Virus record (IMG/VR): IMGVR_UViG_3300018494_004239
DNA length: 64,000 bases
Strand: one strand, 5' to 3'
From: an uncultured virus (IMG/VR IMGVR_UViG_3300018494_004239)
Lineage: Duplodnaviria; Heunggongvirae; Uroviricota; Caudoviricetes
The notes under the pieces were generated by a model. The model had not been told where the DNA came from and did no database searches. It was given only the letters and a program-made list of their open reading frames with translations. A program made the position numbers and the translations under genes. Positions within the stretch are counted from its first letter, which is position 1. Every line of letters starts with the position of its first letter. Below, one piece after another: positions 38,684 to 59,588 of this stretch.

Positions 38684-38790
38684 TGTAGAACAACCCGCAT
38701 TTTGCGGGTTGTTTTTTGTATAAATAGGGTTGACACGCATGGTGTTTTGTGATATAATAATAAAAAAATACGGATAACGGAGTGATGCGA

Positions 38791-39495
38791 ATGAGTAGAA
38801 AATTTACATTGCATAAAAGATATTATGGAGAGGATTATGACCTCTATAAAAAGAAAACTATTACCATTAAAGAAGGTTTGACTGTTTTAGTTGGTTGCAA
38901 CGGAATCGGCAAAACAACTCTTCTTCGACAGATTAAAGACCAGTGTAAAAAGGAAGACATTCCCGTTCTTTCTTTTGATAATCTCAAAGAGGGTGGTGGA
39001 CATGCGGTGTCCTCTGCTGGATTTTATGGAGATTTTGGTTTTATGGCAACTGCTATGGCATCTTCTGAAGGCGAAAACATCGTTATGAACATTGGAAAAC
39101 TTGCCTCTAATCTTCGTGGATTTATCAAGAATGGCGAAGTAAAAGGCAATAGTGATGCCCTTGCAAGAGCATTCGCAAAAGCAATGTGGGGCGAAGGCGA
39201 AGAAGATGAAAAAGAAGTACCAAATGAAAGATGGTTGCTTCTTGACGCCGTTGATAGCGGTTTGAGTGTCGATAACATCGTTGACATCAAAGAATATCTG
39301 TTTAAGACTATCTTCGCTGATAAGGGCGACACAAAGGTTTACATTGTTGTATCTGCTAACGAATACGAAATGGCTCGTGGAGAAAACTGTTTCGATGTTT
39401 ATAATGGCAAATATGTGAAATTTAAGGATTACGAAGAATATCGTGATTTTGTCATTGAAAGCAGAAAAATTAAAGACCAACGTTACCCAGAATAA
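38791..39495 (+). CDS. ABC/AAA-type ATPase
   Basis: GCNGIGKTT, SEGE, LLLDAVDSGLS. Confidence 0.8.
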   Translation: MSRKFTLHKRYYGEDYDLYKKKTITIKEGLTVLVGCNGIGKTTLLRQIKDQCKKEDIPVLSFDNLKEGGGHAVSSAGFYGDFGFMATAMASSEGENIVMNIGKLASNLRGFIKNGEVKGNSDALARAFAKAMWGEGEEDEKEVPNERWLLLDAVDSGLSVDNIVDIKEYLFKTIFADKGDTKVYIVVSANEYEMARGENCFDVYNGKYVKFKDYEEYRDFVIESRKIKDQRYPE

Positions 39496-41574: not shown

Positions 41575-41814
41575 AAACGAAAAAGCACCGATGGCAAATC
41601 GGTGCTTTTTTCTGATATATAGGAGTCTGGTCATTAACATGGCAAAAGAGCCAAAGGAGATGTGCGATGTTCAATCACAATTATATTGTATTGTGTTTCG
41701 TTGCGAAATTCAAGTAAAAAAATAGGGAGTTGATAAAAAATATTTTTCTTCAGATTGACTTTCTAATTGATTTGTGATATAATTATATCATTACAAAAGA
41801 AAGGAGAGATATCG

Positions 41815-42216
41815 TTGAAAACCAAAACTATGGGGCAAATATTTACACCGAAACATATTGTCAATAATATATTGGATATGGTAGGGTTTTGTGATGATAA
41901 TGTCGTAAAAATGAAGATTATGGAACCATCTTTTGGCGATGGTGCTTTCCTTTCTGAAATCATTCGCAGGATAGTGGAATATTGTAAGAATAATGATTAT
42001 AGCATTGTTAAAACAATGGATATTGTTACGGGCAATGTTCATGGTGTTGAAAAAGACAGTAAATATTACGGAATGGCAATAGACAATATTCGTAGAGTGC
42101 TTTTTCAATACGGTATTTCTTATGATGGTAGTTTCCCATACTTGGTAAATGCTGATACATTTGATGTTTATGAAAAATATATGGGCGAGTTTGACATAGT
42201 TTGTGGTAATCCGCCT
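41815..42216 (+). pseudogene. 5' half of an Eco57I/TaqI-like adenine methyltransferase split by the island
   Basis: 'GQIFTP', 'MEPSFGDGAFL', 'FDIVCGNPP', then homology stops. Confidence 0.88.
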
Positions 42217-42316
42217 TTATCAATAAATCTCTTGCTGTGTAAGAAAGATAGTTATATTAGTAATAATCCTTATAAACATTTACACGCTCATTGCGTTAAC
42301 GGAGGTGTTATTGTTT

Positions 42317-43747
42317 ATGAATAACTGTCAAGTATTTACACCTACCTATATAGTTGATTTGATGTTAGATAAACTTAACTACAAAGACGATAACATTAAA
42401 AACAAAACTATCTTTGAACCATCTTTCGGAGATGGTGCTTTTCTCACAGCAATTGTTAAAAGAATTCTTACATATTCTAATGAGAATAAACTTACTCACA
42501 AAGAAACGATAGGTATTCTTAACAATGTGTATGCTGTTGAGATTGATAAAAAGTATTATGATATAACCATTCAGAAGTTGAACAATATTCTGTCTGAATA
42601 TGGTATCAAATACGAATGGAACAATATCGTTTGTGGTAATACGCTTCATTATGTTCCTCCTGTCAAGTTTGACCTAACTGTTGCTAACCCACCCTATCAG
42701 AGAGCGATGCATATGGATTTGTCTACCAGAAATGAAATTGAAACGAATTATCAATTCGGAGTTGGTAATACAGACTTATATGTTGTTTTCTTTGAATATT
42801 GTTTGAAGGCAATGAAACATGATGGTAAGTTATGCTTTATTACACCTAACTCATATTTCAAAAACAGTTCACAGACATTGTTTAGAAAATATCTTTCTGA
42901 CAACAATTTGGTTGATACAATCGTTGATTACTGCAATGTCAAAGTGTTCGATTCCATTGCAACATACACAGCAATTATCTTACTCGATTTTGATAGAGAA
43001 AACAAAACCACCAAATATATCATGATGAAATCAGAAACAGAAGAGGAATATCAGTCCAATGTTGACCTGAAATCTTTTGGGAAGAAACCTTGGGTCTTTA
43101 CAAGTTCATCTGATGCAAAATTCTTGGAGAAAATCGCCAAAAGGAAAACCAAGTTGAAAGACCTGTGTGACATTCAACATGGACTTGCAACGAATGCTGA
43201 TAAAGTCTATGTAGTCAATAAAGATGATGTTGGTAATTTTGAGAGCGACATTCTGCGACCAGTTGCAAAGGCCTCTACATTAAATGTTGATAACAAAATC
43301 ATCTTCCCTTATGAGTGGGACGAAGAAATGGGTCGTTATGTGGTTATAAGTGAAAAAGATATGAGAGAAAAATACCCAAAAACATATCAATATCTCTCTG
43401 ATAACCGCACTGTTTTGAGTAAGCGTGATATGGAAAAGGATTGCTTGTGGTATCAGTATGCTCGCAGTCAAGGCATTCAAAATTCTAATAACAAGAAGTT
43501 TGCTTTGAAACATATTCTTTCCAACGAAGATGCATCTTGCGAAATTAAAGAACTTGATACAAAAACTCTTGTTTACTCTGGTATCTACATTGTCGTCAAA
43601 GAGGAAAAGAATTACAATAGGGTAAAGCAGATTTTATTAAGTAAAGAATTTCACAAATATCTATTTCTTGTTGGGAAGAATATGGCAGGTGGATATCGTA
43701 ATGTAAGTGCTAAATTCGTTAAGGAATTCGGCATCGAGACAAAATAA
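42317..43747 (+). CDS. Eco57I/TaqI-like adenine DNA methyltransferase (island cargo)
   Basis: 'QVFTP', FEPSFGDGAFL, ANPPY, TDLYVVFFE, ITPNSYF. Confidence 0.9.
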   Translation: MNNCQVFTPTYIVDLMLDKLNYKDDNIKNKTIFEPSFGDGAFLTAIVKRILTYSNENKLTHKETIGILNNVYAVEIDKKYYDITIQKLNNILSEYGIKYEWNNIVCGNTLHYVPPVKFDLTVANPPYQRAMHMDLSTRNEIETNYQFGVGNTDLYVVFFEYCLKAMKHDGKLCFITPNSYFKNSSQTLFRKYLSDNNLVDTIVDYCNVKVFDSIATYTAIILLDFDRENKTTKYIMMKSETEEEYQSNVDLKSFGKKPWVFTSSSDAKFLEKIAKRKTKLKDLCDIQHGLATNADKVYVVNKDDVGNFESDILRPVAKASTLNVDNKIIFPYEWDEEMGRYVVISEKDMREKYPKTYQYLSDNRTVLSKRDMEKDCLWYQYARSQGIQNSNNKKFALKHILSNEDASCEIKELDTKTLVYSGIYIVVKEEKNYNRVKQILLSKEFHKYLFLVGKNMAGGYRNVSAKFVKEFGIETK

Positions 43748-43773
43748 AAAGTGGTATGAGAAATCATACCACT

Positions 43774-43965
43774 TTATTTCTTTTTATTAAGTTGATTGAG
43801 AATATTTTGTTGTTCCTCATAAGAGCGAAGATATTGTTGAATTGCTTTTTCTACAACGAATGTTTTATTCGAACCTGTATTTTTACAATGTTCATCAAGA
43901 TTTTGCCAAATTGTAATCTCAACCTTACAATTAAGTGCTTTATAGTTTTTCTTCTGCCTTGCCAT
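43774..43965 (-). CDS. Small ribbon-helix-helix-type regulator
   Basis: 'ALNCKVE..IWQNLDEHC..TG.NKTFVVEKAIQQYL'. Confidence 0.6.
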   Translation of the reverse strand: MARQKKNYKALNCKVEITIWQNLDEHCKNTGSNKTFVVEKAIQQYLRSYEEQQNILNQLNKKK

Positions 43966-44027
43966 TTTGTTTACCTCCCGATATATCATACCACGATGCA
44001 GTAAGGATTGGAAAGATGAATACAACA

Positions 44028-45311
44028 TTATTCATCTTGATTATCCCACTTTTCAATATCAAATGGAGTGTAATCTTTTCCGTCCCAAGGGTTAAACTGT
44101 GTATCGTAGGCAGACTTCTTAATGTTACATTCTGTGCAGAGCATCTGTAGATTTTCTCTTTCTGTTGCTCCACCTTTTGACCAAGGTTTAATGTGGTCTC
44201 CGTGCATTTCAGATTCTTCAAAATGTCTGTGACAATATGGGCATTCTCCACCTTGCTTCTTATAAGCCCAAGATATATCTTTTTTGTCGAATGCGCGAGA
44301 GTGAATAAACTTAATATTTTTACTCAATACTGCTTCATATACACCTTTGGGGTTGCTTATTTCATCAGAAGCATTTTCAAAAATAGCATTTGCCATATCA
44401 TCAGCATTTTTAGGTGTATTGTTGTGATATTTGTTATACAGAATACCCCAGTCCACACCAATCATATGTTTGCGATATGTTGGGAATGTTTCTTTTACCC
44501 ACTCCATAACATCTTCATAATATCTCCATAATTCACGGGCATTGGGGTCTTTGCGATGTGCATCCATATAACTATCAATAGTTTCTTTGCGACCAAATTC
44601 TTTATTATATGCATCAACTGCCCATTCAAGAACAATCTCTAATAATTTTTGACGAACAACAGCATTTTCTTTTTCAGATTTATTACCACCAACGACATTA
44701 AGATAATCACCGTATGTATGACCGTTAGAAACATGACCTTCTGAAAGATAACCTTCTCCATCAATACGAGAAAAATATCTCTTTGCATCAGTTACCCAAG
44801 TTCCGTTATAAATGGCATTTCGCATTTCTTGGTCAGTAAGTTTAATTCCTGAAATGTTGATAATTTGAAACCAAGCAAGTTTTTCATCTTCATCGCCGTC
44901 ACAAATATAAATTGTAACAGGATAATCGAGAAAATCGTCTGTCTTGCTGCCAAGATTGCTGAATGTTTTCGCAACTTCTTTTCCGCCGATGGAGAGAGAA
45001 ACGGAATATTGGTCCTCTGCAAACTTACAAATAGATAAGGTTCTTTGCTGACCATCCATAAGTTCATATTTGCCATCATCAGATTTTGCCCAATACATAA
45101 CATTAAGTGGATAACCCTTTAATATTGTATCGATAACAGCAATTTGCTTTGGGATTTCGTAAACAAATTCTCTTTGATAGGGTGGTCTTACATTGAGATT
45201 ACCACCAAATGCAGTTACTTCACCAGTTTTTGTATTTTCGTTAAATCCGTTAATTAAATCACGAATGGTAAGTTTTTTACCAAATAGTTCTTCATATGTT
45301 TTGACTATCAT
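44028..45311 (-). CDS. DUF262 + HNH nuclease (GmrSD-like restriction endonuclease)
   Basis: RPPYQREFVY, DGQQRT; CPYC..GDHIKPWSKGGAT..NLQMLC..CN. Confidence 0.88.
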   Translation of the reverse strand: MIVKTYEELFGKKLTIRDLINGFNENTKTGEVTAFGGNLNVRPPYQREFVYEIPKQIAVIDTILKGYPLNVMYWAKSDDGKYELMDGQQRTLSICKFAEDQYSVSLSIGGKEVAKTFSNLGSKTDDFLDYPVTIYICDGDEDEKLAWFQIINISGIKLTDQEMRNAIYNGTWVTDAKRYFSRIDGEGYLSEGHVSNGHTYGDYLNVVGGNKSEKENAVVRQKLLEIVLEWAVDAYNKEFGRKETIDSYMDAHRKDPNARELWRYYEDVMEWVKETFPTYRKHMIGVDWGILYNKYHNNTPKNADDMANAIFENASDEISNPKGVYEAVLSKNIKFIHSRAFDKKDISWAYKKQGGECPYCHRHFEESEMHGDHIKPWSKGGATERENLQMLCTECNIKKSAYDTQFNPWDGKDYTPFDIEKWDNQDE

Positions 45312-46295
45312 TTATTTGGTCTCCTTTCTTTTAATTATAATTCTCATATATGGAACAATTGCCTTATTGCCATCATAATAGCACAAATCTGGATGACCCT
45401 CCGTAATTTGTCCAGTATTCCCCTGTGCATAATATGTATCTACAAAATCTTTGGACATTCCGCTACTATCTTTTAGATATCTGCTCAATTCAACAATATC
45501 AAATTGCTCTGGGCAGAATGAATTAAGAAATGTAATAGGAACACCCATCTTTCCAAAATAATCTTTTGGAATTTCCGAAACTTTATTGATATTTATAGCG
45601 TCATAATTTTCATATTTCGGATATCTACTTTCATTGCCTTTATGGTTTTTAGTTAAAATTAAAGGTTCGTGATGCTTATCTAAATCCATATTTGTAAACC
45701 ATGTTTTGTTGCCGAACTTTTTAGTAGTGCCATCTGGTGTTATAAATTCCTTTACATTTGTGTATCCGAAAAACATCTTATTGCTCTTAAATAAGGGAAA
45801 CACTGTTTTGTATGTAATCCAATTCAAATCGCCGATAATGATGAATTTTTTATTATGTTCGATTAGTAGCGGAATAAAACTTTCACGAGCGATTGAAAAC
45901 GGCGGATTTGTAACAACTATGTCTGCTTCTTTCAAAATACTAACACATTCATCACTCCTGAAATCTCCGTTTCCTAAAAGAGGAGTCTTAACAAGATTTA
46001 CCATGTCATCATTCAACATTTCTCCTGCCCACTCCAACTTATATGAAGGAGAACCATCTTTATTAAAATGTGTTGTAATGAGTTTTTTAAGTTTTAACTG
46101 TTTGAAGTGCAACTTAAAGAATTGAAAAAAATTTGACCATTCTGGGTCATCACAATTACAAAGGACTGTTTTTCCTTCAAATTGTTTTACATAATCTTTA
46201 TGTTGAGAAATTTCTGCTTCTATATCTTCAAGACGAGTATAGAATTCATCATTTTTAGCGTCTTTTGCTTTGTTTAAATTATCATGTTTTGCCAT
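45312..46295 (-). CDS. Adenine-specific methyltransferase, EcoRI family
   Basis: KNDEFYT, CNCDDP, GDFRS.EC, VVTNPPFS, MGVPITFL. Confidence 0.9.
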   Translation of the reverse strand: MAKHDNLNKAKDAKNDEFYTRLEDIEAEISQHKDYVKQFEGKTVLCNCDDPEWSNFFQFFKLHFKQLKLKKLITTHFNKDGSPSYKLEWAGEMLNDDMVNLVKTPLLGNGDFRSDECVSILKEADIVVTNPPFSIARESFIPLLIEHNKKFIIIGDLNWITYKTVFPLFKSNKMFFGYTNVKEFITPDGTTKKFGNKTWFTNMDLDKHHEPLILTKNHKGNESRYPKYENYDAININKVSEIPKDYFGKMGVPITFLNSFCPEQFDIVELSRYLKDSSGMSKDFVDTYYAQGNTGQITEGHPDLCYYDGNKAIVPYMRIIIKRKETK

Positions 46296-46368
46296 TTATA
46301 ATACTCCTTTCGTGACATAAAATTGTTTTATTGAAAAACAAAAGAGCATTTTGTCAAGAACAAGAGTG

Positions 46369-46450
46369 TTTTTCATTTATGTTAATAAATGAAAAAAGAC
46401 ATATGTCTTTTTTCATTTATGTTAATAAATGAAAAAAGACATATGTCTTT
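46369..46450. repeat. Perfect 40-bp tandem duplication built from two palindromes
   Basis: TTTTTCATTTATGTTAATAAATGAAAAAAGACATATGTCT twice. Confidence 0.9.
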
Positions 46451-46774
46451 TGAATTTCTAATGTGTATATATTTCTATTTTTGAATTTTATTTCGTGTAG
46501 AAACGACTACACTATTGAGGTAAAAAATATATGACCGCTATGGTCAATTTCTGTTTGAAAATATAAACTAAAGTTTTGTAAAAGTCAAATAAACCGCAGA
46601 TTTTATATTATAGATTGATTATGATAAAATATTAAAAATTTTATCGCAGTTGTTTTTTGATATCATATATAATTATGACATTTTAGTTCAACAAACGGTT
46701 TTACTTAAGATAGAATATCTAAAACATGAATAATAAAATAAGCACCCTGCAAATGCAAAGTGCTTATGATTTTT

Positions 46775-47725
46775 TTATGATACTCTATTGGGGTCATTAT
46801 AAATATATAGCGAATTTTGTGCCATAATCAACATGGTATCATGATTTCCAGTTTGTGTAATGTTGAGCAATTTCATATCTGGATTTTCTTTGTAAAAATT
46901 CGTTAATTCCTCGTTAAGAACAAATGTGTAGTCCTTGTTTCTGTTGTTATAATAGTAAATGTTATCATCTGTTTGTAAGAGAACGCGATAATTTCTTTCT
47001 CTTGAGTATGACATCGATTTAATATCACTTACTACAACTCCTTCTGGTAGCACGAATTCCATATACTCCAAGTCTCCATATCCTTTATGAGTTAGTGTTC
47101 TTTCATCTTTGATTCTAAATTCTGGAATTCCAAGTCTTAATGAACAAGGGAGCGATACGATTTCTGGCATTGGGTCGCCATCATCTTTTATTTTTTGCAG
47201 GGTGCCATTATAGTTGTAAGTAGTCCAAGTATTATCTATATAACACAATGTTAATACTCCGCGTTCAAGATAACCTCTGCCAAGCAAATCAAATCTTACA
47301 CCATTTGCATCGCAATCTGCTATCACTTCTCCAACATACATAAACGCATTATTATCTTCATCTTTAGTGATGTAAAGATGATTAGAGTATCCAGTAAAAA
47401 TTCGTTTATCGTTTCCAGCAAAAATAATCTCTGAACCTTTTACTTTTCTTATTTCTTGTATTTCTTTATCGGTTCTTATGTAATAAAGAAAACCATCTGC
47501 AATAAAGTAATCATTTACAGCATCGGTAATTTTTCCACTATATTCTGTCGCAAATGGTACGAGATTGGGGTATTTATTTTCTGGTTTTTCTTCTGGTTTT
47601 GTTGTTTCCAAATTTGTCGAAGGTGCAGTGGGGGTATTATTCGGAGTTGCGGAACATCCAAATAAAGACAAAAGGGTGCAACAACAAAGTGTGAAAGAGA
47701 GTGCGGTTTTAATAAATTTGTTCAT
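46775..47725 (-). CDS. Putative lipoprotein
   Basis: Signal with LFGC lipobox, P/T linker. Confidence 0.75.
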   Translation of the reverse strand: MNKFIKTALSFTLCCCTLLSLFGCSATPNNTPTAPSTNLETTKPEEKPENKYPNLVPFATEYSGKITDAVNDYFIADGFLYYIRTDKEIQEIRKVKGSEIIFAGNDKRIFTGYSNHLYITKDEDNNAFMYVGEVIADCDANGVRFDLLGRGYLERGVLTLCYIDNTWTTYNYNGTLQKIKDDGDPMPEIVSLPCSLRLGIPEFRIKDERTLTHKGYGDLEYMEFVLPEGVVVSDIKSMSYSRERNYRVLLQTDDNIYYYNNRNKDYTFVLNEELTNFYKENPDMKLLNITQTGNHDTMLIMAQNSLYIYNDPNRVS

Positions 47726-47812
47726 AAAATCATCCTTTCGATAAATTTTCTTAAATTCTATATAATACAAAAATTATTTTCAATAAAAAAACAGGACATA
47801 TAGTCCTGTTTT

Positions 47813-48352
47813 TTATTCTGGTCTTTTTAATTGGATGATTCTTGCTCCAATTTGAGCAGATTGTTTTAATTTTTCATAATCATCTTGTAATTGTTCATAT
47901 TGTTCTTCAAGAGAAGAATTCCTTGATTGTATGTTTTTAATTTCAACCTGTAATCGCATATTTTCATGGCGAAGATTTTCAGTTTCAAAATCTCTTAAAA
48001 GAAATTGTCTGACCTGTCTCTCCAGTTCCTCGCATTTTGATTTTAAGCGCTCTACATCGCCCGCAGAGGCAGTCTTTTCATCAAACGAAGAAGAATACTC
48101 CTCTACAAATAAACGCAGTAATTCGTTATTGTAGAAGGTCTTGCGGGCTATCCCAGTGTCTGCTGCGATAACAGAAACATTAATGGGTCTGCCCTGCAAA
48201 ATCTCCCTTGCTTTATTAACTTCCATAAGTCTTGCTTGTATAGCATCGTCTGCCTTTTCAAACTGTGCTAATTTTTGCTTTGAAATAGTATCAACACTTG
48301 CTCCGTGACGAGCAAGGAATTCATTGATGCGAATTATTTTTTCGTTCTCCAT
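47813..48352 (-). CDS. HTH/coiled-coil accessory protein (GinD/TnpC-like)
   Basis: 'INVSVIAADTGIARKTFY' plus long coiled coil; overlaps the third recombinase. Confidence 0.7.
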   Translation of the reverse strand: MENEKIIRINEFLARHGASVDTISKQKLAQFEKADDAIQARLMEVNKAREILQGRPINVSVIAADTGIARKTFYNNELLRLFVEEYSSSFDEKTASAGDVERLKSKCEELERQVRQFLLRDFETENLRHENMRLQVEIKNIQSRNSSLEEQYEQLQDDYEKLKQSAQIGARIIQLKRPE

Positions 48353-50205
48353 AACTCAATCTCCTTTCTGATTTCTTCACGATTCTCCATAATTTCAACG
48401 AGAGATGGATGTTTATCGAGGATTGTATCGAAACCCTTTAACAATATTTCTTTATCTAATTCATCAAGTTCGGGCAACAATCGTCTATTGATGATATCTT
48501 TGAGTTTAGCCAACTCTTTCTGTGCTGCTTTTGTTTTACCAGCATCAGACATCGCTTTATAAGTTCCTTGTAATGTTTGGAAGTTCAAGTAAGACACATC
48601 TACCATATAATAGAAGTGGAAGAGGTTTGGGCATAAATTATATGCACACATCATTTCATTGGTTCTGGCGTCCTTTGAACAAGGCATGAGAGAGGTTTTA
48701 ATGCAAACGCCACCAGTTTTACCCCTGATAACAACTTTGTCTCCAAGAGCCTTCACAATCGCTTCAATATCGGTGTGAACATTGAAACCATTATCAGCAA
48801 TAAACTTCTGAATATTTTCTTTTAATTCTTGACCAAGCATATTGCCACCAAGAGGGGTCACATTGTCTTCAGCAATCTCACGAATAACTTTTTCTGAATA
48901 TTGAATGTTTTCCTGATAAGTATCTTTTGGTCTCACATAATAACCCAACATATAATCAGATAAGTGACCCATGTATTTTTGAATATAAACAAGTGGAACA
49001 CCACGATTATAAAGTGTTGTACAAAGATGTACACGATATTGACGGGTTTCAGGAACATACAAAGAAACAACTTCATTTTCTTTGTTGTTTTTTGTGGTTC
49101 TATGCAATGTGTATTTGTATGGCGAAATTCCTTCCCATTCTGTTGTGCTTTCAACTGGAAGATATTTATACATAAAGTTGTGATATATTCTTCTCCACTG
49201 CACATTTGTATGTGGGACTCTATTGGTTGCAAAAGAAAGTTCGGACGGATTAAATACACACAAGGTTTTGTTGCCATTAGAAAGAGTGGATTTCTTTCGT
49301 AAATTTTTCATCAAATCAAATGCTTCTTTACCAAGACTGTTACAGAAAATATCAAATTCTAATAATGGTTGATGCGCTTTGCTTGGTTTTCTTTCTGTAA
49401 AATGGATATAATGTGTGCGATTGTCGCTTTTAGATAGTTTTTTCTCAAACAATCTATCAGTAGTTAATTCTAAAAAATCGCCTAACCTTAAACCAGTTTG
49501 AGATAACAATACGATAGATGCAGCCATCATTCGCATATCCGTCTCTTCATTCTTGTTTCTCATCACGGACAAGCATTTGGTCAATATGATATTAAAATAT
49601 GTTTCTGGAATATCTGGTAGTTTGGTATCGGTCTGTTTGTCCAATCTTTTCGATTTAACACTTTCTTCGTCCAAAACAGAAATGTCTACTGGGAGTTTCA
49701 ATTCATAGTATTTGGTGAAAAAATAATAAAACTGATACATAGCTTGATACAAATTGTGTGTCGTGGACATAGATGCATTCCTTCGTTTAATTTCATTCAC
49801 AATGTCATCCGTTGTAACAATATGGATGTTTTTATGAGAGGTGCTATTAAAAATGTGTAACATAACACTGACAAAATTAGCATATCTCACTCCAACTGTA
49901 CTGACTTTTGTCTTTCCAGATATTTTATGTAAGACAAAAAATTTGCAATACTCCGCTAATTCAGATGGGAGTTCCGAGAAATTAAATTTACATGCCTTTG
50001 ACTGTCCACCATTGAAATATGGATTAAAGTCCCAAACATCATCAGCAAAAGAAATCTTAAGGTCTTTTGTTGGTACTTTATCAACCACATTTTCGAAGGC
50101 ATCCAAATATTTCTGGGTATCATCAGAAAAAGCGAATGCTGGACTTTTGTGCCAAGGCACATTATCTACATAATCAAATTTTAAAGCAGATGTTCCATCA
50201 ATCAT
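48334..50205 (-). CDS. Tyrosine recombinase 3
   Basis: TGLRLGD, 'RQYR', YMGH....LGYY. Confidence 0.88.
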   Translation of the reverse strand: MIDGTSALKFDYVDNVPWHKSPAFAFSDDTQKYLDAFENVVDKVPTKDLKISFADDVWDFNPYFNGGQSKACKFNFSELPSELAEYCKFFVLHKISGKTKVSTVGVRYANFVSVMLHIFNSTSHKNIHIVTTDDIVNEIKRRNASMSTTHNLYQAMYQFYYFFTKYYELKLPVDISVLDEESVKSKRLDKQTDTKLPDIPETYFNIILTKCLSVMRNKNEETDMRMMAASIVLLSQTGLRLGDFLELTTDRLFEKKLSKSDNRTHYIHFTERKPSKAHQPLLEFDIFCNSLGKEAFDLMKNLRKKSTLSNGNKTLCVFNPSELSFATNRVPHTNVQWRRIYHNFMYKYLPVESTTEWEGISPYKYTLHRTTKNNKENEVVSLYVPETRQYRVHLCTTLYNRGVPLVYIQKYMGHLSDYMLGYYVRPKDTYQENIQYSEKVIREIAEDNVTPLGGNMLGQELKENIQKFIADNGFNVHTDIEAIVKALGDKVVIRGKTGGVCIKTSLMPCSKDARTNEMMCAYNLCPNLFHFYYMVDVSYLNFQTLQGTYKAMSDAGKTKAAQKELAKLKDIINRRLLPELDELDKEILLKGFDTILDKHPSLVEIMENREEIRKEIELWRTKK

Positions 50206-52390
50206 TTATTATGCCCTCCTTATGTTTAATAATTGCTTTTAAATACAGAACATAGAGTTCTTTTATCGTTACGAGGTCTTCTTTATCGTGGCGATTTTTT
50301 GTGCTTTCAATTAAGCGATTAACATTTTCAATTGCTTTTTTGAAAAACACTTCATGTTTAGTTGTTGTAATAAAATGCTTACATGCCATACAGGGCAAAG
50401 CATTAGTCATTATGCAGGTTTCTGCAGAACATTTTCCACAACCATCCTCAACATCGTTTTCTTCACCAGCGAGATGTTCTGGAATGTCATCAACAATTTT
50501 GGAATCGGTTTCAATCAGTTCTGCTCCGATTGTAATACCGTAAGTGGATTCCAACATCTTTTCTAATTCCATTTCAATATAATGGTTTTTAGTTGTGTCA
50601 AGATGTTTATGTTTGGATAACACAGTCATTTCCATATCGCTCTTACCATTTCGCATGATATGTTCCAAAGATTTAGTCATATGAGTATCACGAAGATTGG
50701 ATGCTGTGTAACTGTGTGATAGACCGAGTTCTTTGCATATATCTGACATATTATTGCTAAATAATTGTGCAGATAAAGCACTGATATTCTTTCCTTTTTT
50801 GGGTTTAAATAGGAAAATGTAATTTTTAATACTATCAACCACACACTCTTCTCTGGCAGATTCCGTGTATTCAATAATATCCATTAGTAAATGATATGTC
50901 AATGGACTAATAACACTCGATATTTTTTTACCATGAGATATCTTTGTATTAGATACAACTATAAATTGATTTGGTTTTATTGTTGGTTTTATACAATCTG
51001 TGGTTAAGGTACATATTTGATTTATTCTAAACTCGGTTTGTAATGCTAAATGAAAAATTGTATGCATAAGTTTAAACTTATCGCTTGTTTGACTTTTTTC
51101 TAACAAATATTCATTTATTTTAATCAGGTCTTCATCTGGAATTGTTTTTGCGGTGTTTTTATTTGGTTCTTCATATTGAGATAGGTAATCGAAAAACAAA
51201 TCGTCGAATTGTAACTTTTTACTGTCTTTTGCCCACATCAAGAACCTTCTAATTGCACCTATTTCGTTATTCTTGGTTGATATGTTAATATCTTTTGAAT
51301 TGATTTTTTCTCTTAATAAAATCGCTTCTTGATTTGTGAAATATTTGGTGTTTTTATTGGGATATTTTGCTTGTTTTTTAAGTTCAACAAAGAATTGCAT
51401 ATAGTTGGCAATTAGCATTGGAGAACTTGATTTGAATATCAGTCCACCAACATTTTTATTTGTCACTATATACTCTAACATCAAGTTGACATAATCTGTA
51501 TTTTGTACAAAACTGAAATCAAATGTCATATGGTCTTCTTTTTTCATTCTTGTAGATTGATTGTCAAGACCTTTCAAAATAATACAAATCTTACTTTTAT
51601 TTTTTGGAATGTTTGTAGGATTTAATGTATAAAAGTAAAAATCGTTTGCTAACCAATGTGGGAATCTTCTTGTGAAGATTATTGGTTGTGTCATATAAAA
51701 AGAATTGGTGAACAGATTCTCTTCTGGGTATAATTTAACCAACTCTCTATAAAAATCCGCTATTGCTAAAGCACAGTCATAAATTATTTTGTTGTAGTCG
51801 TCTATGCCATTGAATTTTTGTTTATAGTAGTTTATCTGTGAGAATAACACATTCTCATTAAAATCGCTGGGTTTGTTAATTTTGTTTTCGTATTCAACAA
51901 AACTTTCAATAAAGTTATGTGATAAAAACTCATGCTTCCATAACTCTTCATTAGGACTGTTGGATAAACATTGGCCAATGACTTGCTTCAAAAATTTATT
52001 TTTAGTTTCTATAAATCGAAGCGAATAACTATTGACAGCTTTTATTACGAACAATGATTCGATTTTATTGCTACACATAATTTTTGGAAGCAAAGTACTG
52101 TTTGCATCAACAAGTGTATTAAACACTGGCAACAATTCATAAAGAGTATCTGCATATTCACCGTGATATAAGTTGTTTTTCAATAAAATATACATAACAT
52201 AAAATGCATGTTTTCGGGAATCGTATTTTACAGAATCATTGCAAATATCAGACCAATTGATTTCAGAAATCTTTTTTTGACAATATTCAACGACAAAGGG
52301 ATTGCTTTTGTGTTCTGTTTTTCGCGTGCTATATAGTTTTCTAACCTCTTGAAACACATCATTCATTGTGTTTAATTTATTCAATAGCAT
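50198..52390 (-). CDS. Tyrosine recombinase 2 (divergent)
   Basis: 'EFRINQI','SNLRDT','KHKHLDTTKNHY'. Confidence 0.8.
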   Translation of the reverse strand: MLLNKLNTMNDVFQEVRKLYSTRKTEHKSNPFVVEYCQKKISEINWSDICNDSVKYDSRKHAFYVMYILLKNNLYHGEYADTLYELLPVFNTLVDANSTLLPKIMCSNKIESLFVIKAVNSYSLRFIETKNKFLKQVIGQCLSNSPNEELWKHEFLSHNFIESFVEYENKINKPSDFNENVLFSQINYYKQKFNGIDDYNKIIYDCALAIADFYRELVKLYPEENLFTNSFYMTQPIIFTRRFPHWLANDFYFYTLNPTNIPKNKSKICIILKGLDNQSTRMKKEDHMTFDFSFVQNTDYVNLMLEYIVTNKNVGGLIFKSSSPMLIANYMQFFVELKKQAKYPNKNTKYFTNQEAILLREKINSKDINISTKNNEIGAIRRFLMWAKDSKKLQFDDLFFDYLSQYEEPNKNTAKTIPDEDLIKINEYLLEKSQTSDKFKLMHTIFHLALQTEFRINQICTLTTDCIKPTIKPNQFIVVSNTKISHGKKISSVISPLTYHLLMDIIEYTESAREECVVDSIKNYIFLFKPKKGKNISALSAQLFSNNMSDICKELGLSHSYTASNLRDTHMTKSLEHIMRNGKSDMEMTVLSKHKHLDTTKNHYIEMELEKMLESTYGITIGAELIETDSKIVDDIPEHLAGEENDVEDGCGKCSAETCIMTNALPCMACKHFITTTKHEVFFKKAIENVNRLIESTKNRHDKEDLVTIKELYVLYLKAIIKHKEGIIND

Positions 52391-53735
52391 TCCCTCCCTT
52401 TAATTCTGGTATCATGTCGTATAATTCCTTTTGGAACTCTGTTTTAATCTTATATTCATCTTCTGGTGTAGGATTGTAATACACCATCGTAGATGAAATA
52501 TTTTTATGCCTCATCATTTTTTGCAAAGATAATGCATCAGCGGGATGCTTTGAAAATCTTGCATGGAACATTGCAAAACCGTGTCTAAAGCGATGACTTA
52601 AATTATTATCACGAACATCAATATCGATAGGGATGCCTGCAATATCAAAATATTTTTTTAGGGCATTATTCCATGTTTGGTCACTCAATACACGACCATA
52701 TCTATTTAAAAACACATAATGATTAGTGTCTGGTTTATCTCTTACAGAAACAATGTCGGCAATGCCTTCTTCATAGTTTGCTGGATATTTTTCAATCATT
52801 TCCGAATGCATTTCTTCAATAAGTTCTACCAGTTCTTCATATAGTGGATAAGTGATAATAATTTTTTGAGTTGCTGCACGATAATCTCTGGATGCATATT
52901 GGCGCTGGTCAACAATATGAGGTAATCCTTTCGCAAATTGGAATTTAGCATCACTCATTCTGTTGCGAAGCATAATGACTGGAACAAGTTTACCATTGTC
53001 GCGTATCTCACAAATGTCTTCAATGGTTATGCCAAGCACCTCTCCGAGTCTCAAACCATACCCATACATAAGATGGACAATTAATCTCGCTTGTTTATCA
53101 TTGGCATCAATGATGGATTTAAATATTTTCTTAAAGTCATCGGGTCCAATATATTTTGGCACAGTATTCGTATTGTAATCGGGTGTTTTTAGGTTATTAT
53201 CATACTTCTTTCTTTCTGGGGAAGAAGGAGTTCCTTCAAAGATATGTTCGCTTTGAACTGTATGAGATTTGAATATTGCCTCACAGTTAACCCTTGCATA
53301 AGAAAAGTAAGAACGATATACAGACAAATATCCGTTAACAGTGTTGTTGCTTCGCTGGGTTTTCATTGCATATTGTTCTGGGTTTGTATTGATACCACGA
53401 AGGAAAAATAGCAATTCATTGAATGCTGTTTCATTTAATGTATTTATCTTATAACCAGAAAGGGACAAGAAGCAATAAAGTAATCTCAATGCAAAAGCTG
53501 ATTTGCTCCTGCTGGTTAGTGGACTTTCTTTTAATTTGAAATTAAGGTAGTTATAAACAGTGGTAATGGGTTTCATATTGTCGTCATATTGGATGAAATA
53601 TGTATATCCGTCTTGTTCTAATTGATAAAGTGGCATTGACACCTTTCTTTCGGACATAACATTTCCTTTTTCGTCGAGTATTGATTTAACAAATACAGAT
53701 TGATTACCTAATTTATTTTCACTATAAATAATCAT
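52377..53735 (-). CDS. Tyrosine recombinase 1
   Basis: GLRLGEVL, SHRFRHGFA, MRHKNISSTMVY. Confidence 0.9.
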   Translation of the reverse strand: MIIYSENKLGNQSVFVKSILDEKGNVMSERKVSMPLYQLEQDGYTYFIQYDDNMKPITTVYNYLNFKLKESPLTSRSKSAFALRLLYCFLSLSGYKINTLNETAFNELLFFLRGINTNPEQYAMKTQRSNNTVNGYLSVYRSYFSYARVNCEAIFKSHTVQSEHIFEGTPSSPERKKYDNNLKTPDYNTNTVPKYIGPDDFKKIFKSIIDANDKQARLIVHLMYGYGLRLGEVLGITIEDICEIRDNGKLVPVIMLRNRMSDAKFQFAKGLPHIVDQRQYASRDYRAATQKIIITYPLYEELVELIEEMHSEMIEKYPANYEEGIADIVSVRDKPDTNHYVFLNRYGRVLSDQTWNNALKKYFDIAGIPIDIDVRDNNLSHRFRHGFAMFHARFSKHPADALSLQKMMRHKNISSTMVYYNPTPEDEYKIKTEFQKELYDMIPELKGGNAIE

Positions 53736-54003
53736 TTTGCCCTCACTCCCTCTTGATTTTTACTATAATATATGGTATAATAAGTATGACAGATTGTCAA
53801 GAATTTTACACACTAATAAATTATAGATATAATATAGACGATTTATTCTATTCTTTTGTACGAATATATAGTGTGTAAATTGCAAAACTAACGAATTTCG
53901 CTTCATTATGTCATTATTATAGTGAAAAACCCTGCAAAATGCAGGGTTTAGACAATATTCTATAAAATTTACACAGTTTTACACATTTGAGAATTACTGA
54001 TAA

Positions 54004-54996
54004 CCACCATATGTGAATCTGCATCAAATTGAAGAAAAAAATGCAATTCGTGATTTTGAATATTCTGCTAATGGTATGACAGACCTCTATATTGCATTTT
54101 TTGAAATGGGAGTAAAAATGCTCAATCAGAGTGGTAAACTTGGTTATATTACTCCAAATTCTTACTTTACCAGTGTCGCTGGTAAAAATATGAGAAAAAA
54201 CTTTGTTGATAAGAAGTTGTTGGTAAACATTGTTGATTTTGGTCATACACAGGTATTTAATAATGCATTGACTTATGCTTGTATCACAATTCTTGATAAA
54301 GACAATAAAAATGATAAAGTGGCATTTGAAAAAGAAAACAAAAGTTATAAACTTTCTTATGCAGATTTCTTTATCAATGAGAATTTCTATTTTTCTGCTA
54401 ATTCTGATTTTAAGAACATTATCAACTACAATGGTCAAAGATTTTGTTCAGTGAAAAATGGATGTGCTACTCTTTGGGATGAGTTTTTTATCAATTCTGA
54501 AATTGCAAAACAAAGTAAATTTTCTATTCCAATTGTTAAAAGTTCTACTGGTAAGCGATATCAATGCTATTATCCATACGACAAAAATGGAAAAGTTATA
54601 CCGTTTTCAGAAATTGAAAAAGATGAAATAACGGCAAAGTTTTTGGAACAAAATAAAGAGCGTTTGCTAAAAAGAAATCTTCACGATGTTTCTTTGTGGT
54701 ATGCATTTGGTCGAACACAAGCACTACCTGATACTTATAAAAACAAATATGGTATCAATGCCTTGTACAAAACACAAGATGATGTACATATTGTTGAGTG
54801 CGAGGCAGGATGTGCTGTTTATGGCGGGATGTATATATTAAGTGATTTAGATATAGGCACTCTTAAAAAAATACTTTGTACAGACGATTTTATCAAATAT
54901 GTATCTACTATTGGCAAGTACAAAAGTGGTGGATATTATACGGTTTCTACAAAAGATATTGAGAAATATCTAAACTATACACTATCAAAAAAGTAA
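54004..54996 (+). pseudogene. 3' half of the split adenine methyltransferase
   Basis: Frame opens CCA CCA TAT GTG (PPYV) right after TAA; TDLYIAFFE, YITPNSYF, GKYKSGGY. Confidence 0.88.
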
Positions 54997-55161
54997 AAAA
55001 TCTACCTATTATTTGACTAAAAATAACATCGCCCATGCTCGTGACTTTAGTCGTGAGCAAGGCGATGTTTCTTGTCTTTCTTTAATAAAAAGGTTGCAAT
55101 TTTAAGTAAAATATGTTATAATATATCTATCTTAAACAGAAAGGAAGTGCCTTATTAAAGA

Positions 55162-56030
55162 ATGAATATAACTACAAGTTATAAAGTTCAAATTGTTGGT
55201 ATTAATAAAATGTTAAGACCAACTGTAAATAAATATAGAGAAGCGCTTACTTTCTTAATTCCCATTGTTGATAAAGAATGGGATATTATCTCCACAGCAA
55301 GTGGAGTAAAAAGAAAAGCAATTGTCGAACATCTTATTCATACGACAAAGGATAATGTAGCAAAATATCCAGAATTTGACCAATTGTTTCATAAGATGCC
55401 GAGTTACTTCCGCAGAGGAGTAATTGCCGATGCAATCGGCATTGTATCTTCTTATAGAAGTAAATATGAAAATTGGGAAAAGAATGGCAAGATTGGCAAA
55501 CCGCCAAGATTGCAGACCAAACATTATAATTGCCCAATTTTTTATAGAGACAATACTTATGAAGAGACAGATAATCCTAACATTGTTAATCTAAAACTTT
55601 ATATTAATAATGATTGGGTTTGGTATCACGTGCATCTTCGTGCTACGGATATTAAGTATATTCAGAAGCATTGTCAAAATAAAGAGATGTCTGCTCCAAT
55701 TTTGGAGAGAAGATATAACAAATACTATTTGAGATTTGCTTTTACTGAAAAGGTTAGACTGAATGAAGTAAAAGTAGAAAACCAAAAAGTGTTAGCAGTT
55801 GACCTTGGCGTCAATAACGATGCAGTTTGTTCGGTAATGACAGCAGACGGAACTGTCCTCAATAGAAAGTTCATTAACTTTAAGAGTGATAAAGACCGTA
55901 TGTATCATACACTGAATAAGATTAAAAAGAAGCAGAAAAAACATCAATCTGTTTCTAAACTGTGGAGTTATGCCAAGAACTGCAATGAACAGCATTCTAT
56001 TAAAATTGCACAAGCAATAGTAGATTATGC
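55162..56030 (+). pseudogene. tnpB: Truncated TnpB (IS200/IS605 remnant) with left-end hairpin at 55025-55069
   Basis: 'VLAVDLG.NNDA.CSVM..DG'; lacks RuvC II/III and zinc finger. Confidence 0.8.
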
Positions 56031-56429
56031 TGCCAACTTTTCAGCAACGAGCAACTGGTTCATAGACGGGGCGGGAGTGTCCATGATTTTATCCAAAACT
56101 TCTCGTGCTTCAACTTCAACGATAATTGTACGAGTGCCATGAGCACACCAGTCCAAGGAAGACTGATTAGGGTCAGAGATTACTCTGATGTACTCGTCAT
56201 TATACTCATAGATGTCGCTTACTACTAAAGTGGCGCTTTCGGGAATTTCGGCGGTATAAGGTTCATTGATGTTTTCAGAACCTATGCAACAAGGAATTGC
56301 AATTGCCAAAAAGATAATGAAAGCAATGAGCGGAAGGGCTTCTTCACAACCACATAAAACAAAGAGAGCGATAGCGATGATTGCGAGTACGGTAAAGATT
56401 CCACCAATGATGCAAAGAGTTAAATACAT
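56025..56429 (-). CDS. Hypothetical membrane protein (3' end possibly truncated)
   Basis: GGAGG RBS, two TM segments; collides with the tnpB remnant. Confidence 0.65.
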   Translation of the reverse strand: MYLTLCIIGGIFTVLAIIAIALFVLCGCEEALPLIAFIIFLAIAIPCCIGSENINEPYTAEIPESATLVVSDIYEYNDEYIRVISDPNQSSLDWCAHGTRTIIVEVEAREVLDKIMDTPAPSMNQLLVAEKLAA

Positions 56430-57146: not shown

Positions 57147-58346
57147 TTAATAACCAAATTGTGTGCAACCGATAAATATGTTTGATGGTGCAAATTGTGC
57201 TGGGACATTTGGCATAGATACAAGTGATGTGCATTTTCCGAATAGTTTATTGGCGTTCACAAGAGTTGATGGAATTTGTGGTGCATATTTAAGTGATGTG
57301 CATCCGTAAAAAGTGCCATTGTAAGTATTTATTTCTCCCATATAGTTTACACCATCTGGAATTTTGTAGTTAGACATGTCTACAAGAGAAACACAATTCA
57401 TAAAGGTTTCGTTCATAGCAATTATTGTTTTTGGCATAGCGGGAGGAACAATGAGGTTTCGGCAATCTTTAAATGTTTGGAATGCACTTGTTACATTCAT
57501 TGTTCCAACTTTTTCAAGAATTGGACCATATGTTGTTTGATTTAATGAAACAACATCTTTATTTAAATGTACTTGCCATTGATTTGTTCCGCCCCTACGG
57601 ATATAATAATAGTCTCCATAGTAATATCTGTCCTCAAAACTTATATTTTGGGGGAATGGAGAACCACTATTTAGTACTTCACCGTTTGCCTTTACATAGT
57701 AAGCGCCTGTCGGGATAACATCCTTATGCATAAGAGAAACTACTGCATTATCAGTCATATCTAACCATATTGTAGTTGGACTTAAATCATTCCCTTTGGC
57801 ATCTGTGCCAGATTTTACCATTTTGTTTAATTCTTCAACGGAAATATTTTCATTTTCTGTGCACACAACCAAACCACAGTCTGGTGAATAATAATAGTGA
57901 CAATCTGATTGTTTTGGTTCAAAGGTAGAAGACGATGCCTTCGTGTAATTTTGCACAATTAATGCAAGTGTATTTGTGTTTTCTGGATATTTTGTATCAC
58001 GGTTTAATTTTATACCATTAAGACCAGAAGTTTCTAAATCAGTAATATCTTTGCGAGTTGTTGCTTTTGTAACATTGTATACACGACCTTGTGCACTGTC
58101 TAAATTGTTTGGGTCTAATGTTCCAGAAGCAATGTCTTGGCAATAGAGTTCGTATTCACTTACGAATCTTTCCATTGCATTAGTGTACTCATTAGCATTG
58201 GTATTGTCGGCAGATACATTTGCACGGTCAATTAAACCTGCAACCGATGGAATAGCAATTGCTACTAACACAGCAAGTATTCCTATCACAACAAGTAACT
58301 CTATTAAAGTAAAACCTTTGCGGGATTTGAAACTGAATTTTTTCAT
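57147..58346 (-). CDS. Type IV pilin-like protein (copy 6) with LRR C-terminus
   Basis: Prepilin signal; 'YYYGDYYY' domain and 'TF..C.SL' repeats shared with copy 5. Confidence 0.88.
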   Translation of the reverse strand: MKKFSFKSRKGFTLIELLVVIGILAVLVAIAIPSVAGLIDRANVSADNTNANEYTNAMERFVSEYELYCQDIASGTLDPNNLDSAQGRVYNVTKATTRKDITDLETSGLNGIKLNRDTKYPENTNTLALIVQNYTKASSSTFEPKQSDCHYYYSPDCGLVVCTENENISVEELNKMVKSGTDAKGNDLSPTTIWLDMTDNAVVSLMHKDVIPTGAYYVKANGEVLNSGSPFPQNISFEDRYYYGDYYYIRRGGTNQWQVHLNKDVVSLNQTTYGPILEKVGTMNVTSAFQTFKDCRNLIVPPAMPKTIIAMNETFMNCVSLVDMSNYKIPDGVNYMGEINTYNGTFYGCTSLKYAPQIPSTLVNANKLFGKCTSLVSMPNVPAQFAPSNIFIGCTQFGY

Positions 58347-58586: not shown

Positions 58587-59588
58587 TTAAAACTCGTCTG
58601 CAGGAGCAGAAAGGATTTTGTTTTTAATTTCTTCAAACACTTCTGGATTATTTTTGAGATAATCCTTTGTTTTTTCTTTGCCTTGACCGATATTTTCTCC
58701 ATTATAAGAGAACCAAGCACCAGATTTTCTGATAATTTCTTTATCGACAGCAACATCGATAATTTCATTTTCCTGCGAAATACCACTGTCATAGAAAATA
58801 TCAAATTCTGCTTGTCTAAATGGAGGAGCAACCTTGTTTTTCACAACCTTTACCTTTGCTCTATGCCCAATCACTTCTGTGCCTTCTTTGATGTAATCGA
58901 CTTTTCTTACATCCAAACGAACACTCGCATAGAACTTAAGTGCTTTACCGCCAGTTGTTACTTCTGGGTTACCATACATAACTCCAACCTTTTCACGTAA
59001 CTGGTTGATAAAGATGCATACACAATTTGTGGAAGCAATTGCCGATGTTAATTTTCTTAATGCTTGGGACATAAGTCTTGCAACAAGACCAACATGGGCA
59101 TCGCCCATTTCTCCATTGATTTCTGCCTGTGGAACAAGAGCAGCAACCGAGTCAATAACGACGACATCAATCGTGCCAGAGCGAATTAACATTTCTGCAA
59201 TATCAAGTGCCTGCTCGCCAGAATCGGGTTGAGAAACAAGAAGCGATGCAACATCAACACCCAACTTCTTTGCAAAAGAAGGGTCTAATGCATGTTCTAC
59301 ATCAATATATGCTGCTACACCACCATTTTTTTGTACTTGTGACACAACAGATTGTGCAATCAAAGATTTACCTGCTGCCTCTGGACCATAAATTTCAACA
59401 ATTCGTCCACGAGGCAATCCGCCAACTCCAAGTGCAATATCCAATGTTAAAGAACCAGTAGAAATGGCAGAGACACTCATTTTTTCGTTATCGCCAAGTG
59501 CCATAACAGAACCTTTGCCATACTTTTTTTCAATTTGTGCTAATGCGGAATGTAATGCTTTTTCTCTATCAGCGTTCAATGTTTCCAT
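58587..59588 (-). CDS. recA: Recombinase RecA
   Basis: [54 protein letters not shown]. Confidence 0.97.

Follow-up and report, generated by a model that had tools for sequence, protein, structure and literature searches.

The 64,000-nucleotide stretch of uncultured virus DNA deposited in IMG/VR as IMGVR_UViG_3300018494_004239 (hereafter the window, by which we mean that whole stretch) contains an island of 11,787 bp (42217-54003) that is an insertion in a DNA methyltransferase gene, at the codons for the catalytic NPPY motif of the enzyme. The island has an operon of three tyrosine recombinases (A, B and C) and a small fourth gene (D) at one end and a second, full-length methyltransferase gene at the other (Table 1). 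We consider it probable that it is a site-specific element resembling the multi-recombinase elements GInt and Tn554, which targets DNA encoding a conserved motif and brings with it a substitute for the gene that it breaks.

The two pieces of the host methyltransferase gene flank the island on the plus strand. A frame that starts at TTG 41815 reads ..FDIVCGNPP and then runs into island sequence as far as TAA 42322-42324, and a second frame opens after TAA 54001-54003 and reads PPYVNLHQIEEK.. through 54996. The translation of 41815-42216 (134 aa, ending ..CGNPP) is 92% identical to P0001 over its residues 1-134. P0001, which was retrieved in a protein search with the C-half and has 18 member sequences, is intact and 462 aa long, and the translation of 54004-54996 (330 aa, beginning PPYV..) is 95% identical to its residues 133-462. 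Since both pieces match one intact protein, they are halves of one gene, as had been proposed in an initial annotation made from the sequence alone, in which the two pieces together rebuilt a methyltransferase of 462 aa; that proposal had been staked on the halves not having their best matches to different proteins, and both match P0001. The split point is G-N-P-P|P-P-Y, with residues 133-134 of P0001 (PP) present in both halves, and Pfam assigns N6_Mtase to the N-half and Eco57I/N6_Mtase to the C-half from profile position 133 onward. The features of a gamma-class N6-adenine DNA methyltransferase are present: the N-half has motif I (FGDG), the joint falls at motif IV (NPPY), and a recognition region lies C-terminally. 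P0001 matches the PADLOC model MTase_II PDLC03315 over residues 4-461 (2e-85). The host halves are also collinear with the methyltransferase paralog in the cargo and meet at the NPPY of the paralog.

Each end of the island bears two features that are absent from the initial annotation: a terminal inverted repeat (42217-42242 and 53979-54003) and, at each junction, one 6-bp copy of the Pro-Pro codons. The flanking direct repeats (GGTAATCCGCCT.. and GATAACCACCAT..) are imperfect, and the two 6-bp copies differ at two synonymous positions. An ungapped inverted-repeat search was too noisy in AT-rich DNA and missed the gapped repeat of the window, and the ends of elements were located via their split genes. 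The end design of TTAT.., ~18 nt and TGTGTAA is common to the window and to two related loci, L001 and L005, and all termini begin with (A/T)TAT in the six elements for which both junctions are available. In these six, the copies (given as far end / recombinase end) are CCGCCT / CCACCA in the window, CCTTGC / CCCTGC in L005, TTCTAT / GTATTC in L018, GGGACA / GGAAGT in L037, GTGAAG / GTGAAG in L024 and, as 7-bp copies, TGCTTT(A) / TGCTTT(A) in L017. Both copies lie at the same position of the split gene in all six elements and cover the same two codons in five, the repeat of L017 being out of codon register, and they are non-identical in four of the six. A target duplication is identical at the start, so that two to four or more changes within 6 bp, beside adjoining gene halves that are intact, make such a duplication unlikely. 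The non-identical copies fit instead the 6-bp carry-over of strand-biased circularizing integrative elements (hereafter SEs) and Tn554, for which the available text of PMC10214605 describes that the 6 bp of the target remain beside intA and the 6 bp of the donor flank end at the far side. By this rule the CCGCCT of the window would stem from the previous insertion site, which would therefore also have been a Pro-Pro pair.

The same junctions bear on whether the island could be a conventional one with a single integrase and an identical attP/attB core, in which the other two recombinases would be passengers and the 6-bp copies a mutated duplication. We regard this as extremely improbable: although A alone has the strongest Phage_integrase match, and L024 and L017 have identical copies on both flanks, the A-B-C order is kept in 32 of the 40 loci obtained in a pattern scan (one genome per species) and across several phyla, the catalytic residues of B and C are kept in 33-34 orthologs, and the copies differ at 2 of 6 positions in the window, 3 of 6 in L037 and at least 4 of 6 in L018 beside intact gene halves.

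With regard to shorter motifs, the TTTACAC sites listed in the initial annotation are all present, at 42279, 53805, 53873 (minus strand), 53968 and 53978. The same heptamer also occurs at 41842 and 42335, where it forms the FTP codons of the host and cargo methyltransferases, and it is not enriched in the window as a whole (17 observed versus 13.2 expected). The TGTGTAA core occurs 14 times in the window versus 14.2 expected, with five of the 14 in the ~340 nt that make up the two ends of the island. The inverted pair at 53805-53879 constitutes candidate recombinase-binding or operator sites, and the hairpin at 53927-53949 was not called in a terminator scan. A megablast search of 41700-55100 against plasmids and phages retrieved no near-identical DNA.

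The claim that the island brings a substitute gene rests on the cargo, which spans 42317-47770 (~5.5 kb) beyond a far end of ~100 nt. As the initial annotation had it, the first cargo gene is a full-length 476-aa homolog of the broken methyltransferase in the same orientation, an assignment that Pfam supports; no gene lies closer than this paralog to the left (far) end. Past the end of the island, the truncated host frame continues for 35 codons and stops within the start of the paralog, whose ATG is preceded by GGAGG at 42300-42304. Since this ATG overlaps the truncated host stop, transcription of the paralog probably starts at the host promoter, and its translation is probably coupled to that of the host fragment. 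The same stop/start layout was found in L037, an element of a distant clade (A only ~36% identical) that splits the ligase gene ligA. There, the cargo closes at the far end with a full ligA of 671 aa that is 44% identical to the split host gene and is oriented as the host 5' fragment, which follows pcrA, and the host frame reads through the end of the island and stops in an ATGA on the cargo ligA start, behind GGGAGG. In L018, which splits hsdM, an hsdR-hsdM-hsdS set lies in the same place and orientation without the overlap. L024 and L033, which split a topoisomerase gene, each carry a full topoisomerase, which in L024 is 93% identical to the split host gene and in L033 is 44% identical to the host fragment at its N-terminus. 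A full copy of the broken gene was thus present in the cargo of five of the seven evaluable elements (the window, L037, L018, L024 and L033), and the idea of a replacement paralog, put forward for the window, gains strong support from relatives that carry the full ligA, topoisomerase or hsdRMS that they split. The cargo of L037 (L037:15923-20698) also has an extra dihydrofolate reductase, a ThyX thymidylate synthase and a 1032-aa class I tRNA synthetase, so that this element carries several spare housekeeping genes.

The topoisomerase element L024 provides a further observation on the carried copy. The host and cargo copies differ at 11 of 13 third-codon positions around the site versus 31.5% over the whole gene, and the 24-nt window centred on the junction is in the top 1.2% of all windows for divergence. 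This single case hints that the carried copy is recoded at the attachment site. The C-part of the host topoisomerase in L024 (27185-29044) has one internal stop, and the cargo copy is intact.

An alternative is that the paralog is cargo of an ordinary kind, such as an orphan methylase or an anti-restriction one, that its position is incidental and that the island simply inactivates the host gene. The paralog is only 39% identical to the host enzyme in the N-half and 29% in the C-half, its best PADLOC model is MTase_II PDLC03335 (9e-61) and that of the host type is PDLC03315, and L005 splits hsdM and carries no methyltransferase. Restriction-modification (RM) and other defence genes are, moreover, known as GInt cargo in E. 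coli (PMC10121019, as far as its available text goes). A copy of the very gene that is split, in five of seven elements and for four target genes, would nevertheless be very unlikely for unrelated cargo, and the window and L037 share the far-end position, the orientation and the start/stop overlap of the copy in spite of belonging to distant clades. As such, we consider the ordinary-cargo explanation unlikely.

In order to place the NPPY target among those of relatives, the flank upstream of A was scanned against Pfam in 35 loci. A conserved gene that abuts the element and is cut within its profile was found at 14 of the 35, and the other 21 have a small helix-turn-helix (HTH) gene next to A or no family match. 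In L001, whose A is 76% identical to that of the window, the abutting gene is an HsdM-like N6_Mtase, not the gene of the window, and what remains of it begins with PPFSMK at profile position 133, where the C-half in the window begins as well. Since L001 is cut at the same Pfam position in a different gene, the catalytic motif, and not one particular gene, looks like the target. Two further hsdM genes are cut elsewhere, in motif I in L005 (YDPC/PCCGSGG, with Pfam halves 2-54 and 53-311) and just before TPR in L018. Other elements split ligA at RGD/G (L021 and L037, the halves of L037 being 3-75 and 73-253), a topoisomerase at the Toprim acidic motif ..D.GRE/G (L022, L024 and L033), an AIM24-family gene at FFGGE/ (L027, L030 and L036), a sodium:solute symporter gene between profile positions 94 and 102 (L017) and, judged from profile truncation only, RtcB and SelO (L004 and L026). 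When 39 A proteins were placed in a quick maximum-likelihood tree, every target group with several members fell on one branch with SH-aLRT support of 99-100, namely Toprim (three), AIM24 (three), ligA (two) and NPP[YF] (two), and methyltransferase genes are hit at three separate places on the tree. Targets therefore track recombinase clades in this quick tree.

These results divide the proposal of the initial annotation that a catalytic motif serves as the attachment site. It appears to hold for the window and L001, both cut at NPP[YF] at profile position 133, and it does not extend to distant relatives, which cut other motifs and genes, so that targeting of NPPY is a trait of the clade and not of the family. 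The mapping of insertion sites of related recombinase trios, suggested at the same time as a check, likewise returned the same motif position in L001 and targets that follow clades, together with other clades that cut ligA, Toprim, AIM24 and other genes. No second NPPY element was completed: genome G001 had no match to protein C, and the contigs of G002 end before the far junction. Four shorter methyltransferase matches that were considered as further insertion cases (P0012, P0014, P0073 and P0094) were rejected, as none begins at PPY.

We propose the following mechanism. The recombinases would bind to the ends, which contain TGTGTAA, and strand exchange would take place across a spacer of 6 bp whose sequence may differ between the partners; the spacer beside recombinase A would be the host's own and that at the far end would have been carried from a previous Pro-Pro site. 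The joint of the excised circle would then read ..CTGATAA-6 bp-TTATCAAT.., and the empty site GGTAAT-CCNCCN-TATGTG. Whichever copy were left behind on excision, the NPPY gene would be intact again, since both code for Pro-Pro. The island would target DNA for an invariant catalytic motif, so that sites may be expected in many different methyltransferase genes. The knock-out of the host gene would be compensated by the methyltransferase of the island itself, and the net effect would be the exchange of one methyltransferase for another, with a possible change in specificity, and the gain of a new type II RM pair.

The restoration of an in-frame NPPY by either 6-bp copy is also what would be expected of a regulated intervening element such as skin in sigK, whose excision at a set time would put the host methyltransferase back together and switch the methylome, and the promoter match of the operon is flanked by an inverted repeat that could be an operator. 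On the other side, no sporulation or developmental context was seen, and many unrelated target genes together with carried substitutes fit a selfish element better than a host switch, and we judge a regulated element to be very unlikely. A fixed, immobile relic, with the split gene as a dead pseudogene pair, is another explanation that we hold to be improbable. In its favour, the recombinase A gene of L001 is broken by a ~2.5-kb insertion, and the internal stop in the topoisomerase C-part of L024 indicates that insertions in this recombinase family can be old; in the window itself, however, the four core genes and both host halves are open without stops, the terminal repeats and the promoter match are intact, and both halves are still 92-95% identical to an intact homolog.

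The recombinase operon agrees with its earlier description as three overlapping tyrosine recombinases and an HTH/coiled-coil gene, as judged from Pfam and the listing of open reading frames (ORFs). All four core genes are on the minus strand, the overlaps in the order A, B, C, D are 14, 8 and 19 nt, and the operon starts 268 bp inside the right end. The catalytic residues R229, H381, R384 and Y419 of A are invariant in 56 sequences. In B, R455, K483 and R567 are present in 34 of 34 orthologs, with a Tyr near 603 in most, and in C, all 33 orthologs have R240, R391 and H414, and 32 have K273 and Y423. On account of these conserved residues, all three recombinases look catalytically competent. 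B and C both terminate in a conserved Cys cluster. The small protein D scores 24.2 bits against DUF6262, below the cut-off of 29, and DUF6262 matches were obtained for 3 of 18 D candidates, all below the cut-off; the nearest named Atlas clusters of D are VPA1267/DUF6262 (0.90-0.91), which we treat as a lead only.

Table 1. Features of the island and of the split methyltransferase gene in the window, from left to right
Feature	Position	Strand	Remarks
Promoter-like site, host methyltransferase	41755..41783	+	TTGACT, 17 nt, TATAAT, TG before second hexamer; 11/12 consensus; pattern match only
Host methyltransferase N-half	41815..42210	+	TTG start to Asn132 (..FDIVCGN); Pfam N6_Mtase
6-bp Pro-Pro copy CCGCCT, far junction	42211..42216		Probably carried over from previous insertion site
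Terminal inverted repeat, end far from recombinases	42217..42242	+	TTATCAATAAATCTCTTGCTGTGTAA; begins TTATCA; pairs imperfectly with 53979-54003
Read-through tail of truncated host frame	42217..42324	+	35 codons, stop TAA 42322-42324; overlaps paralog ATG 42317
TTTACAC motif	42279..42285	+	Inverted relative to TGTGTAA at 42236-42242
Cargo methyltransferase paralog, 476 aa	42317..43747	+	N6_Mtase and Eco57I domains; own NPPY at residues 124-127
82-aa ORF	43756..44004	+	No family match
Restriction endonuclease candidate, 427 aa	44028..45311	-	GmrSD_N/DUF262 and HNH; PADLOC REase_II PDLC03418, 9.4e-102, near full length
EcoRI-family adenine methyltransferase, 327 aa	45312..46295	-	PF13651 3.4e-98; MTase_II PDLC03297 2.1e-94; adjoins endonuclease gene
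331-aa ORF	46775..47770	-	Hydrophobic N-terminus and Cys, lipoprotein-like by eye; no family match
Fourth gene D, 179 aa	47813..48352	-	Small coiled-coil protein, HTH-like region
Recombinase C, 623 aa	48334..50205	-	Pfam Phage_integrase; R240, K273, R391, H414, Y423 conserved; C-terminal Cys cluster
Recombinase B, 730 aa	50198..52390	-	Pfam Phage_integrase; R455, K483, R567 invariant; Tyr near 603; Cys cluster 654-670
Recombinase A, 452 aa	52377..53735	-	Pfam Phage_integrase; R229, H381, R384, Y419 invariant
Promoter-like site, recombinase operon	53772..53800	-	TTGACA, 17 nt, TACCAT; 10/12; pattern match only
Inverted pair TTTACACACTA / TAGTGTGTAAA, 53 nt apart	53805..53879		11 nt, 100% complementary; just upstream of operon promoter
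Perfect 10-bp hairpin AAACCCTGCA/TGCAGGGTTT	53927..53949		Between island end and operon promoter
Two tandem TTTACACA copies, 10 bp apart	53968..53985	+	Outer copy inside terminal repeat
Terminal inverted repeat, recombinase end	53979..54003	-	Minus strand reads TTATCAGTAATTCTCAAATGTGTAA
6-bp Pro-Pro copy CCACCA, recombinase-side junction	54004..54009		Probably native, by the SE/Tn554 rule
Host methyltransferase C-half	54004..54996	+	PPYVNLHQ.. to stop; Eco57I/N6_Mtase

The remainder of the cargo includes the RM pair that the initial annotation had noted as an addition by the island: 44028-46295 matches a type II restriction endonuclease and a type II methyltransferase of PADLOC (Table 1). The same annotation had spoken of a host element that contained the split methyltransferase. 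Nothing was found to link the split gene to another mobile element, and the flanks of the island look chromosomal, with recA (58587-59636) and coaE (61055-61648) among the flanking genes; the best named relatives of the RecA of the window are from Clostridia, at ~69-70% identity. A stretch rich in RM genes lies upstream (28272-34649) and contains a T5orf172 gene and two methyltransferases, one of type I (699 aa; PADLOC MTase_I, 1.7e-225) and one type II-like (528 aa), both with intact NPP[FY] codons. Two pilin-like genes (34762-36177 and 57147-58346, both minus strand) with an N-terminal methylation motif are 41% identical overall, with nearly identical first 65 residues, and flank a stretch of ~21 kb in which the split methyltransferase and the island lie. 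Directly downstream of the split gene is a TnpB-like ORF of 326 aa (55162-56142), which is probably a degraded copy, since it scores below the cut-offs (NCBIfam TnpB 46.9 versus 100 bits; Pfam OrfB_IS605 22.5 versus 30.5). Upstream of the split gene, a 237-aa P-loop protein (38782-39495) has a weak match to mad3 of a methylation-associated defence system (4e-10, N-terminal 37 residues only).

Relatives of the recombinases are widespread. An exhaustive, profile-free search for the A family, in which counts are clusters at 50% identity, gave 501 proteins at E<=0.001, of which 214 reached E<=1e-30. The 40 loci of the pattern scan are from Bacillota, Bacteroidota, Spirochaetota and one Pseudomonadota genome. 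Apart from those with the A-B-C order, one has A and C, and the remaining seven run off their contigs. D was found by tblastn in nine loci, and six more have an ORF of 176-202 aa at that position. Two IMG/VR loci carry the trio, of which one (L053) abuts a UvrD-type helicase gene that is cut within its profile. The recombinase A gene of L001 is itself interrupted (L001:2704-5263), with residues 1-401 and 384-452 ~2.5 kb apart and a TGA after residue 403. Other searches yielded little: a metagenome scan with recombinase A gave only three loci, weak and unrelated; among 401 genomes of the order of L001, three had a homolog of recombinase A and none was new and informative; and a scan of viral contigs for the island end followed by CCNCC gave one chance match without a recombinase. 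The 'three tyrosine recombinases' of Tyrovirus are dispersed phage genes and are unrelated. A tblastn search of 72,556 plasmids with C gave only nine records of E. faecium and one of C. botulinum. On the nine E. faecium plasmids, what is present is a relative of the trio (A 35.6% identical), in a region scrambled by insertion sequences. In the one record examined (L060, 6082-23571), the trio lies beside a C-terminal remnant of hsdM, hsdS and hsdR, with copies of IS30 and IS1216, and ~6 kb away is an EcoRI-family methyltransferase and DUF262 pair like that in the cargo of the window.

A number of observations weigh against our reading of the island as a targeted, gene-substituting element. Its movement is a prediction from sequence, and the native 6 bp were assigned by analogy, because the intact allele is known only as a protein of 92-95% identity and not as DNA of the same strain. 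Only the window and L001 are at NPP[YF], L001 with a single junction on a contig of 6.9 kb. Four other NPP[YF] methyltransferase genes in the window are uninterrupted, and therefore either recognition needs more than the motif or the island is single-copy. Two of the seven evaluable elements, L005 and L017, have cargo without a copy of the target gene. The low identity of the paralog to the host enzyme (29-39%) and its different best PADLOC model also count here, and the cargo paralog may not replace the host specificity. As regards kinship, A has a weak, C-terminal match to the GmtY model of NCBIfam (34.8 bits versus a cut-off of 340), and the relation to GInts rests on layout; no true GmtY was found in 14 control genomes. 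Similarity to an element of Tn554 layout in an Ornithinibacillus genome (G406) is likewise weak (E 5e-06 to 8e-05), and BLASTP detected no similarity between D and the 127-aa small protein of that element.

Taken more broadly, the window and its relatives could represent a widespread and undescribed class of 'gene-replacing' recombinase-trio elements, which home to catalytic-motif DNA, break the host gene and install their own copy, a generalization for which we see the arguments on either side as evenly balanced. In such a class, each clade would home to the DNA of an invariant motif, NPPY, DPxxGSGG or FTPR in methyltransferases, RGDG in LigA and DxGREGE in Toprim; the host gene would be broken even if it is essential; the element's own copy would be placed directly behind the truncated host fragment and be driven by the promoter and ribosomes of the host; and the carried copy might be recoded at the attachment site, thereby escaping self-insertion. 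If true, this would be a dedicated route by which housekeeping and RM genes are displaced by foreign versions. To our knowledge, multi-recombinase islands (GInts, SEs and Tn554) are known mainly from Proteobacteria and staphylococci, and how they choose their targets is poorly understood. Transfer RNA genes serve other elements as attachment sites. The case of the window and its relatives suggests a rule in which the attachment site is DNA that is kept constant by selection on a catalytic motif, and the cost of breaking a gene is paid by a spare copy that is wired to the expression signals of the host. Such a rule would explain islands inside essential genes such as ligA, the exchange of RM repertoires and methylomes in gut anaerobes in one step, and housekeeping genes that have been replaced by foreign versions. 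It would also make these elements a compact site-specific integration system with a predictable target.

Comparison with described systems shows resemblances to several of them. The initial annotation had called the island GInt-like, and its layout agrees with that of GInts in the available text of PMC5385486: an operon at one end is made up of three tyrosine-recombinase-like genes and a small fourth one, which the cargo follows immediately; the opposite end is short; imperfect, non-identical direct repeats flank the element; and insertion is site-specific and often inside genes. The likeness does not extend to the third recombinase, since GinC is reported there to be without the first catalytic Arg, whereas C of the window keeps R, K, R, H and Y. 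The Firmicutes GInts in the same text are two cases only, both in DNA helicase genes and with undefined ends, and that text says nothing of a catalytic motif as target or of a target copy being carried. For elements of this kind, word searches of the literature retrieved no paper about targeting of NPPY or about carriage of a copy of the target, although such searches cannot prove absence.

With Tn554 the island shares Gram-positive hosts, site-specific insertion inside a gene and imperfect terminal inverted repeats, as well as a 6-bp footprint from the previous site, according to the available text of PMC10214605; for the window, the carry-over is suggested by the non-identical copies. Tn554 differs in having two recombinases (one ordinary, one large) and TnpC, versus three recombinases in the island. 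The Tn554-layout element in G406 (proteins of 355, 674 and 127 aa) was placed in that family by layout and sizes only; the Cys-cluster region of C aligns with its large recombinase (E 5e-06), and its 127-aa small protein is a clear member of DUF6262 (57.8 bits). This genome has both a ligA-splitting element and the Tn554-layout element (L076:790-1857 and L072:250-2647, contig 2), and there is a second similar pair on contig 33.

SEs, as described in the available text of PMC10214605, resemble the island in their four core genes, target specificity, 6-bp carry-over and a fourth protein with a C-terminal coiled coil. They differ in that Tfp, the second product, is without the RHRY residues, whereas B of the window keeps R455, K483 and R567, and the Tyr in most orthologs; SEs are stated in that text to be found only in Gammaproteobacteria, and we set them beside the island by description. 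The recombinase in trio (RIT) elements of the same source have recombinases of ~315-410 aa and terminal inverted repeats of 34 bp, and no fourth gene or cargo. The island does not conform to this definition, with proteins of 452, 730 and 623 aa, a fourth gene and ~5.5 kb of cargo. Finally, islands of the dusA or prfC type insert in a conserved gene and compensate for the damage by bringing a new gene end. Such islands replace the displaced end only, whereas the island of the window supplies a whole second gene and the host gene stays broken. On the strength of its gene content and ends, the island would be best placed as a variant within the multi-recombinase kind of island, and not as a proven GInt.

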